Below, piece by piece: positions 31,294 through 32,478 of a DNA stretch of 64,000 nucleotides. Numbering within the stretch: position 1 is the stretch's first letter; the number at the start of each line of letters is the position of its first letter. The position numbers and the translations under genes were made by a program. The stretch comes from Escherichia coli (lineage in GTDB: Bacteria; Pseudomonadota; Gammaproteobacteria; Enterobacterales; Enterobacteriaceae): assembly GCF_050920415.1 (NCBI RefSeq), contig NZ_CP169309.1, one strand, 5' to 3'. Below the pieces are notes generated by a model. That model saw only the letters and a program-made list of their open reading frames with translations, was not told where the DNA came from and did not search any database.

Positions 31294-31405
31294 TGATGCC
31301 GGATGATTTGTAGGTCTGATAAGACGCGCCAGCGTCGCATCAGACACCAGCACGGTGCCTATGCCGGATGCGGCGTGTACGCCTTATCCGGCCTACATAG
31401 TGCAT
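31294..31405. repeat. BIME (two REP sequences) between artM and artJ
   Basis: REP-type motifs gatgccggatg...ctgataagacgcgccagcgtcgcatcag and gcctatgccggatgcggcgtgtacgccttatccggcctaca. Confidence 0.7.
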
Positions 31406-31420
31406 AGATTAAGATAATAA

Positions 31421-31457
31421 AGACGGGCAACCTACTAAGTTGTCCGTCTTTTTTTAT
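31421..31457 (+). terminator. Rho-independent terminator of the artPIQM operon
   Basis: Stem agacgggcaa/ttgtccgtct followed by a T7 run. Confidence 0.6.
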
Positions 31458-31570
31458 TTATTACGAATTATTTAATCATATTTATTGCATATAAATTCAC
31501 TTGATGGCATTGTTATCTCATGCCGCAGACACGGCCAAAAATCATAAGATTGACAGACGGGAGTTCCATC

Positions 31571-32302
31571 ATGAAAAAGTTAGTTCTTGCCGCTTTACTT
31601 TCATCCTGTGCATTCGGCGCTTCTGCCGCAGAGAAAATCAATTTCGGCGTATCAGCGACCTATCCTCCCTTCGAATCTATAGGTGCTAATAATGAGATTG
31701 TCGGCTTTGATATCGACCTGGCAAAAGCGTTATGCAAACAGATGCAGGCAGAATGTACTTTTACCAATCACGCTTTCGACAGCCTCATCCCGTCACTGAA
31801 ATTCAGAAAATATGACGCCGTTATCTCCGGTATGGATATCACGCCGGAGCGTAGCAAGCAGGTATCATTTACCACGCCCTACTACGAAAACTCAGCTGTT
31901 GTGATTGCCAAAAAAGATACCTACAAAACGTTTGCCGACCTGAAAGGCAAACGCATTGGGATGGAAAACGGTACAACGCACCAGAAATATATTCAGGATC
32001 AACACCCGGAAGTAAAAACTGTATCCTATGACAGTTATCAAAATGCCTTTATCGACCTGAAAAATGGTCGTATTGATGGGGTATTTGGTGACACAGCGGT
32101 GGTTAATGAATGGCTGAAAACCAATCCACAGCTGGGCGTTGCAACAGAGAAAGTAACCGACCCGCAGTACTTCGGCACCGGTCTGGGCATCGCTGTACGT
32201 CCGGATAATAAAGCCCTGCTGGAAAAACTGAATAACGCACTGGCAGCGATTAAAGCAGATGGTACGTATCAGAAAATCAATGACCAGTGGTTCCCGCAGT
32301 AA
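31571..32302 (+). CDS. artJ: Arginine-binding periplasmic protein ArtJ
   Basis: 243 aa from MKKLVLAALLSSCAFGASAAEKINFGV...; upstream extension trimmed. Confidence 0.95.
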   Translation: MKKLVLAALLSSCAFGASAAEKINFGVSATYPPFESIGANNEIVGFDIDLAKALCKQMQAECTFTNHAFDSLIPSLKFRKYDAVISGMDITPERSKQVSFTTPYYENSAVVIAKKDTYKTFADLKGKRIGMENGTTHQKYIQDQHPEVKTVSYDSYQNAFIDLKNGRIDGVFGDTAVVNEWLKTNPQLGVATEKVTDPQYFGTGLGIAVRPDNKALLEKLNNALAAIKADGTYQKINDQWFPQ

Positions 32303-32326
32303 TCGGGACTGATGACAAAAGTAAGA

Positions 32327-32430
32327 TTGCCTGATGCGCTACGCTTATCAGGCCTACATTTACCCTGCAATGCATTGATTTAGCAAGATTTTGCAGGCCG
32401 GACAAGGCGCTCACGCCGCATCCGACATGA
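32327..32430. repeat. REP/BIME elements between artJ and rlmC
   Basis: gcctgatgcgctacgcttatcaggcctaca and ggccggacaaggcgctcacgccgcatccgaca REP-like motifs. Confidence 0.65.
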
Positions 32431-32456
32431 ACAACGCGCACCTTATCAGCAATCTG

Positions 32457-32478
32457 AAGCCGCAGCCGCGGCTTTTTT
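32457..32478. terminator. Hairpin terminator shared by convergent artJ and rlmC
   Basis: aagccgc-agcc-gcggctt followed by ttttt; the rlmC stop lies inside the T run. Confidence 0.6.

Follow-up and report, generated by a model that had tools for sequence, protein, structure and literature searches.

REP/BIME elements of two classes flank the artJ gene of Escherichia coli and vary between strains

The REP sequences of Escherichia coli have been described as three types, y, z1 and z2, for which published sequences are available (PMC11208160). In a BIME-1, a z1 and a y REP are joined by the linker L and the element is present in a single copy (PMC3333891). A BIME-2 consists of z2 and y REPs in tandem with a variable copy number, and the variation of this copy number between strains has already been described (PMC3333891). 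The GTAG tetranucleotide is required for the binding of TnpA(REP) (PMC3333891). REPs are also known as IHF sites, gyrase sites and targets of insertion sequences (PMC3333891, PMC6379681). The preference of gyrase is documented for BIME-2, especially for y REPs, and strong cleavage only for some of its multi-copy arrays (PMC6379681). The insertion sequence IS621 has ATCAGGCCTAC as its natural target (PMC11208160). For K-12, artJ has already been tabulated with REP83a-b (PMC10100675), and artJ and artPIQM are known to have separate sigma-70 promoters that are both repressed by ArgR, with ARG boxes overlapping the promoter elements (PMC6640053). The RefSeq annotation of K-12 contains no REP features, not even REP325, and the absence of a feature there is uninformative.

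The stretch of E. coli DNA analysed here is 64 kb long and is referred to as the window. It has the gene order artP-artI-artQ-artM, artJ, rlmC, on which the list of open reading frames and the RefSeq annotation agree; the annotation was taken from a single, 100% identical record (NZ_CP169399.1, E. coli MFDS1022581). The last gene of artPIQM, artM, is located at 30612-31280 on the + strand and ends with the TGA stop codon at 31278-31280. The artJ coding sequence follows on the same strand at 31571-32302. Its true start codon is the ATG at 31571, in frame with a longer mechanical open reading frame that begins at 31520, and its translation matches ArtJ of K-12 at 240 of 244 positions including the stop (239 of 243 residues). 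The rlmC gene lies on the - strand at 32477-33604 and is convergent with artJ. An earlier sequence-only reading of this DNA had given the gene order and the coordinates around artJ correctly. Both REP clusters are intergenic and lie between annotated genes. Short open reading frames that run over the REPs, such as that at 32277-32441 on the - strand, were dismissed as mechanical artefacts.

When the artM-artJ and artJ-rlmC spacers were compared with those of K-12, the genes, the positions, the order of stump, z2 and y REP upstream, the z1-L-y BIME-1 downstream and the terminators were all alike, but the spacers of the window are only 86-90% identical to K-12. Three further differences were found in the artJ-rlmC spacer. 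It is 174 nt long in the window and lacks the extra left copy of the terminator hairpin, a segment of 24 nt, that K-12 possesses (198 nt). The downstream y REP of the window reads GCAG at a position where K-12 retains GTAG, and the IHF core of the window is exact, whereas K-12 has one mismatch. Outside this locus, the upstream cluster resembles BIME-2 arrays such as REP325 of K-12, located between yjdM and yjdN and the source of naRNA4, to whose units the z2, the short linker and the y REP are 84-85% identical over 91-92 nt. Other strains show tandem amplification like that of REP325 at artM-artJ, with a step of 103 nt, but the window has a single unit plus a stump and not an array. The downstream cluster resembles the entD-fepA BIME-1 (RIP/RIB elements) in having inverse z1 and y REPs, an IHF core in the long, conserved L linker and a single copy. 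Compared with the BIME-1 family, the copy at artJ is slightly decayed, as its y REP has four substitutions, including one that removes the GTAG.

The REPs were identified by a blastn-short search over the whole 64-kb window, with the published y, z1 and z2 sequences as queries. Only four significant matches were found and all four flank artJ. On the artM side, a z2 match is located on the - strand at 31310-31343 (33 of 34 positions, E 1.5e-12; full element 31310-31345) and a y match on the + strand at 31363-31396. The latter matches the y form with a GTGAAC loop at 33 of 34 positions (E 1.4e-12) and the published y sequence at 32 of 34 (E 1.7e-12). On the rlmC side, a z1 match on the + strand at 32329-32357 is identical at 29 of 29 positions (E 4e-12) and a y match on the - strand at 32395-32424 at 28 of 30 (E 8e-8; full element 32393-32426). 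When up to two mismatches were allowed, the REP tail motif CTTATCMGGCCTAC was found four times in the window, each time at one of these REPs, compared with a mean of 0.63 in the shuffled controls. Three of the four REPs keep the GTAG at the foot of the stem: the z2 REP at 31310-31313 and, read as CTAC, the upstream y REP at 31393-31396 and the z1 REP at 32354-32357. In the downstream y REP it is replaced by GCAG (32393-32396). The hairpins of the z2, the upstream y and the z1 REP fold with -18.4, -21.3 and -13.2 kcal/mol, respectively, and z scores between -4.6 and -5.4 against shuffled sequences. The downstream y REP folds weakly (-12.5 kcal/mol, z -1.9).

The palindromes might also be read as chance GC-rich inverted repeats or as plain terminator stems from outside the REP family, since they adjoin terminators, and this is all that speaks for such a reading. 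It is refuted by the shuffle controls, by the almost exact agreement with the consensus sequences of y, z1 and z2 and by the 84-85% identity to the REP325 units. In addition, queries containing the clusters had matches in 5,425 of 5,426 genomes at megablast stringency, with a median of 20-27 per genome and hundreds of thousands in total. We therefore give the chance reading no credence. The four palindromes flanking artJ are confirmed members of the E. coli REP family. The consensus search that the sequence-only reading had proposed as a check was run in this way and all four motifs score as REPs, so that its claim of REP/BIME sequences on both sides of artJ is borne out by four consensus matches (E 1e-12 to 8e-8) and their hairpins.

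The upstream cluster extends from 31298 to 31396, between the artM stop codon and the terminator, and consists of the stump of a y REP, a z2 REP, a linker and a y REP. The stump (31298-31309, + strand) comprises the 8 nt GCCGGATG at 31298-31305 followed by ATTT, which are the last 4 nt of the y-z2 linker. The z2 REP (31310-31345, - strand, with the GTAG on the + strand at 31310-31313) aligns at 34 of its 36 positions with one mismatch and has a hairpin with z -5.4. Its stem carries a paired variant in which GGTCTGA...TCAGAC replaces GGCCTGA...TCAGGC, so the stem is preserved, and the same variant is found in K-12. A short linker of 17 nt, ACCAGCACGGTGCCTAT (31346-31362), joins the GCC(G/T)GATG ends of the z2 and the y REP. 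The y REP itself (31363-31396, + strand) ends with the CTAC and has a hairpin with z -5.2; the stem of the terminator starts 22 nt beyond it. In the window, the z2 and y REPs are in inverse orientation with a short linker between them. Tandem copies in variable number are found at the locus across strains, and the window has one unit and the stump. By the published definitions (PMC3333891), the upstream cluster is a BIME-2-type unit.

The z2-linker-y pair is also recognised by the Rfam model RF02564 (naRNA4), at 31313-31393 on the - strand. The score of 78.4 bits covers the full model of 77 positions and exceeds the gathering score of 59.5. As naRNA4 is one Y-l-Z2 unit of REP325 (PMC4550694), the pair could in principle be a gene for a naRNA4-like nucleoid-associated ncRNA that bridges DNA with HU. 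However, RF02564 is effectively a profile of any y and z2 pair. The strand above the threshold is antisense to the read-through from artPIQM, the sole evident transcription in this region, and on that strand the match sits behind a hairpin and a T-rich stretch. The sense strand scores 49.6 bits, which is below the gathering score, and the pair is missing from about 37% of the genomes. The 17-nt linker aligns to the linker of the Y-l-Z2 covariance model with a 4-nt insertion and is thus 4 nt longer than that of naRNA4. We regard an ncRNA gene at this position as highly improbable, and read the pair as one BIME-2-type unit.

A comparison of REP copy number among strains had been suggested along with the claim of REP clusters, and the number was found to vary at both sites. 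At artM-artJ, a spacer of 225 nt contains one y REP, and a spacer of 290-291 nt contains the stump, the z2 and the y REP, that is two REPs. Strain EC1515 has a 328-nt spacer with y-z2-y (3 REPs) and an O145:H28 strain a 431-nt spacer with y-z2-y-z2-y (5 REPs). The array with 1, 3 and 5 REPs has a period of 103 nt. At least the z2 and y form was found upstream of artJ in 3,397 of 5,426 complete genomes (about 63%), and an intact first y REP was kept in 41 of the 5,426. Most of the remaining genomes have the single-y allele, and the z2-y pair is absent from about 37%; these frequencies are approximate, as about 10% of the 5,426 genomes gave no artM-anchored match.

The alignments suggest how the alleles are related. 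When 38 nt are removed from the 3-REP allele of EC1515, the junction of the window is reproduced (111 of 120 positions identical), and because this deletion rebuilds the junction we take the partial REP at 31298-31305 as the stump of the first y REP. The upstream allele of the window thus derives from y-z2-y by a deletion of 38 nt that runs from one GGATG repeat to another. In the single-y allele, the sequence on the left of the REP is that of the first y and the sequence on its right is that of the last y REP, as would be expected of recombination between direct y copies. A 31-nt pattern from the artJ leader was scanned over one genome per bacterial and archaeal species. The scan, which returned no E. 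coli representative and is hence uninformative on absence in other genomes, gave a single outgroup, Escherichia sp. MOD1-EC7003, which has y-linker-z2 with the last y missing. In the alignment, its first y REP is intact where the window has the stump. This outgroup informs about the ancestral y-z2 arrangement but is too thin to polarise all alleles.

The downstream cluster is a complete BIME-1 of 155 nt at 32303-32457, including the outer flanks of 26 nt (32303-32328) and 31 nt (32427-32457). Its identity to the BIME-1 found between entD and fepA in another strain is about 86%, with the similarity stopping at 32303 and 32457, and in the alignment the element is missing as a whole from the empty alleles of 28 nt. 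The intervals 31294-31405 and 32327-32430 that had been proposed for the clusters do enclose the REPs, but the mobile unit downstream is larger than the second of them. Within the BIME-1, the z1 REP (32329-32357, + strand), identical to the consensus throughout, is followed by the long linker L of 35 nt (32358-32392) and by the y REP (32393-32426, - strand). The linker contains an exact IHF core consensus WATCAANNNNTTR, a sequence motif only, at 32368-32380 on the - strand (AATCAATGCATTG), and the IHF scan gave no other exact match from 31281 to 32480. The Rfam family ES036/CssrF matches at 32350-32392 with 37.2 bits, just under its gathering score of 37.6. In the y REP, three substitutions accompany the change from GTAG to GCAG and the hairpin is weakened. 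Parts of the downstream BIME-1 may already be inert, considering the loss of the GTAG and the weak fold of the y REP. The z1 and y REPs are inverse to each other with the long L linker between them and are present in a single copy, as described for BIME-1; no tandem BIME-1 copies were found in any artJ-rlmC allele aligned.

The BIME-1 is present between artJ and rlmC in 3,191 of 5,426 genomes (59%). The occupied spacer is 174 nt long in the form of the window or 198 nt in the form of K-12, in which the additional left segment of 24 nt contains the second copy of the terminator hairpin. About 30% of the genomes have a spacer of 28 nt that consists of the terminator hairpin alone, and about 10% have a sulfatase gene after artJ instead, both figures being estimated from evenly spaced ranking rows. 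In the K-12-type allele, a copy of the artJ/rlmC hairpin (AAGCCGC-loop-GCGGCTT) lies on either side of the BIME-1, whereas the empty alleles have one hairpin and the allele of the window is without the left copy. The duplicated hairpin could be a target-site duplication left by the insertion of the BIME-1, as opposed to a later rearrangement, but we consider this origin unlikely. If it were true, the duplicated hairpin would record the insertion of a BIME-1 into or beside a pre-existing terminator hairpin, which bears on the spread of REP/BIME elements.

The REPs at this locus are also targets of a mobile element. In the relative RMDEC465, which is 97.6% identical, IS621 is inserted into the z2 REP between artM and artJ at GTAG|GCCTGAT, and the insertion point matches the natural IS621 target ATCAGGCCTAC; the artJ-rlmC site downstream is empty in this strain. 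In the window, a target search found the exact IS621 target ATCAGGCCTAC in the z1 REP at 32347-32357, a position equivalent to that of the insertion in the z2 REP of RMDEC465, whereas the z2 REP of the window reads ATCAGACCTAC, with one mismatch. No insertion sequence is present at the REPs flanking artJ in the window. The allelic series and the IS621 insertion directly show that the REPs are substrates of recombination and of insertion sequences. The clusters had been called hot spots of recombination, gyrase and IHF. This is supported by the properties of the REP family (PMC3333891, PMC6379681) and by the insertion in RMDEC465, but the two clusters differ in this respect. The linker of the downstream BIME-1 contains the IHF core, which the upstream cluster lacks. 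By analogy, the type preferred by gyrase would be the upstream cluster, which is here a single unit.

The transcription signals around artJ were analysed by a terminator scan and by folding. The artPIQM terminator is located at 31419-31457 on the + strand and has a hairpin (31419-31451) with a stem of 13 bp and a loop of 7 nt, followed by a run of seven T residues; it folds with -18.4 kcal/mol (z -7.0). A terminator common to artJ and rlmC lies at 32456-32481 (+ strand) and has a hairpin (32456-32475) with a GC-rich stem of 8 bp and a run of six T residues that overlaps the rlmC stop codon. It folds with -12.7 kcal/mol on the + strand and -11.6 kcal/mol on the - strand. Both sites, with their hairpin and T run, are intrinsic (Rho-independent) terminators, and the strong terminator predicted beside each REP cluster was found at 31419-31451 and 32456-32475. 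Upstream of artJ, a consensus scan detected an ArgR operator at 31463-31501. It consists of two 18-bp ARG boxes at 31463-31480 (4 mismatches) and 31484-31501 (1 mismatch), which are 3 bp apart with their starts at a distance of 21 bp. No other site in the 64-kb window matches the consensus as well as the second box. For the sigma-70 -35 and -10 hexamers, a consensus scan of the + strand upstream of artJ gave nothing convincing.

The arrangement raises the question of whether the REP clusters themselves act as insulators that make artJ a separate unit, as terminators, attenuators or topological barriers. REPs and BIMEs have been reported to terminate transcription and to insulate against the supercoiling that transcription induces (PMC3333891), and both clusters are positioned exactly at the boundaries of the artJ unit. 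However, each cluster is followed on its 3' side by a strong and conserved intrinsic terminator. Roughly 37% of the genomes have a single REP upstream and about 30% are without any downstream REP and have just the 28-nt terminator. The promoter and operator region of artJ is identical in strains with a single upstream REP or without downstream REPs. The terminator on the artM side, the operator region and the leader of 51 nt (31520-31570) were present in 8 of 8 aligned E. coli alleles, and the artJ/rlmC hairpin was kept in all 6 aligned alleles that have rlmC as the neighbour, while the number of REPs varies among strains from 1 to 5 upstream and from 0 to 2 downstream. Insulation by the REPs themselves is therefore improbable. 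The boundary of artJ is set by the terminator and the promoter, because both are conserved while the REPs come and go. We conclude that artJ owes its autonomy to the artPIQM terminator and to its own ArgR-controlled promoter, and that the REPs are dispensable and accessory. The sequence-only reading had proposed that the REPs isolate artJ. That artJ is a separate unit is upheld by the published promoters (PMC6640053) and the ARG boxes, but a causal role of the REPs is not, since the terminators and the promoter persist without them.

As both clusters are located between a stop codon and a terminator, each belongs to a 3' untranslated region, that of artPIQM or that of artJ. Our main reading, to which we assign a probability of about 0.9, is that two independent, strain-variable members of the REP/BIME family reside in the 3' untranslated regions of artM and artJ, and that the autonomy of artJ comes from the terminator and the promoter. 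Each cluster would then be transcribed at the 3' end of its mRNA, artPIQM or artJ. Judging from the family, the REP hairpins probably block or slow down 3'-to-5' exonucleases, and they may serve as back-up pause or attenuation sites and add to termination. At the DNA level, IHF would be expected to bind the L linker with its core motif, and gyrase might use the y REP as a weak or modest site. As members of the family, the REPs are also likely to be targeted by IS621 and by TnpA(REP), the transposase associated with REPs. REP-induced stalling of ribosomes at the stop codon is known for REPs that lie no more than about 15 nt from the stop. At artJ this was rejected as a candidate function, as the first intact REPs start 29 nt (artM) and 26 nt (artJ) past the stop codons.

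The REP/BIME elements that flank artJ are already known biology, and the only loose novel end is the duplicated hairpin of the K-12-type allele. The elements, their association with IHF and gyrase, the copy-number polymorphism and the targeting by IS621 are all established, and the value of the present analysis lies mainly in a correct annotation. The REP bracket around artJ should not be taken as the cause of the transcription-unit boundary. The artJ locus is a tidy worked example of the family, in which both BIME classes occur together with a series of alleles of 1, 2, 3 and 5 REPs, BIME-1 sites with and without the element, and a natural insertion of IS621.

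The 8 kb around artJ at 28000-36000 was compared with the E. coli records, and in 4,901 of 5,454 records the identity was 90-95%. An identity of at least 95% was found in only 526 of the 5,454, and one of 100% only with NZ_CP169399.1 (strain MFDS1022581; food, South Korea). Judged by these identities, the strain is a member of a divergent E. coli lineage, and the divergence probably extends to the whole window.

Elsewhere in the window, a tRNA-Ser(GGA) gene (3650-3737) is adjoined by a putative orphan type I-F CRISPR remnant at 3780-3867. The remnant consists of a degenerate repeat (3780-3807), a spacer of 32 nt (3808-3839) and a good repeat (3840-3867), which was scored with 50.1 bits by the Rfam model CRISPR-DR4. 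Downstream of it, an unbroken run of 19 C residues is found in the intergenic region at 3927-3945, which is unusual for E. coli; it may have arisen in the assembly as an artefact, or it may be a tract prone to slippage. The small RNA RybB is encoded on the plus strand at 44068-44146 (Rfam RF00110, 104.8 bits).

The second-best ARG box of the window, with 2 mismatches, is located just upstream of artP at 28339-28356, in agreement with the known control of artPIQM by ArgR. At the other end of the locus, rlmC is not the immediate neighbour of artJ in O145:H28, XJ6-3, PK8275, EC1515 and the outgroup Escherichia sp. MOD1-EC7003. There, a convergent sulfatase gene with its own hairpin follows 50 nt past the artJ stop codon; for MOD1-EC7003, this gene was deduced from the near-identical 50-nt spacer and not from an annotated call. 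The minus strand of the MOD1-EC7003 locus also carries a tandem duplication at about 1150-1420, in which ~40 nt from the 3' end of artM are repeated along with the y REP, its linker and a part of the z2 REP.

In the relative RMDEC465, the z2 REP between artM and artJ contains IS621, an element with a bridge-RNA recombinase, at 3282-4851 (locus L011, NZ_CM177019.1). The insertion point is GTAG|GCCTGAT, which corresponds to 31313/31314 in the window. At this site, the z2 REP of RMDEC465 reads GGCCTGAT, whereas that of the window reads GGTCTGAT.

The leader of artJ, the 51 nt before the start codon (31520-31570), showed no variation among all 8 aligned E. coli alleles, and 48 of its 51 positions were identical in MOD1-EC7003. 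In contrast, the artJ coding sequence of the window is only ~92% identical to that of K-12 and ~88% identical to that of MOD1-EC7003. Since the leader is invariant in the 8 alleles while the coding sequence diverges, the alignment suggests that the leader is under constraint; a role in the control of translation and an sRNA site are two examples of what could impose it.
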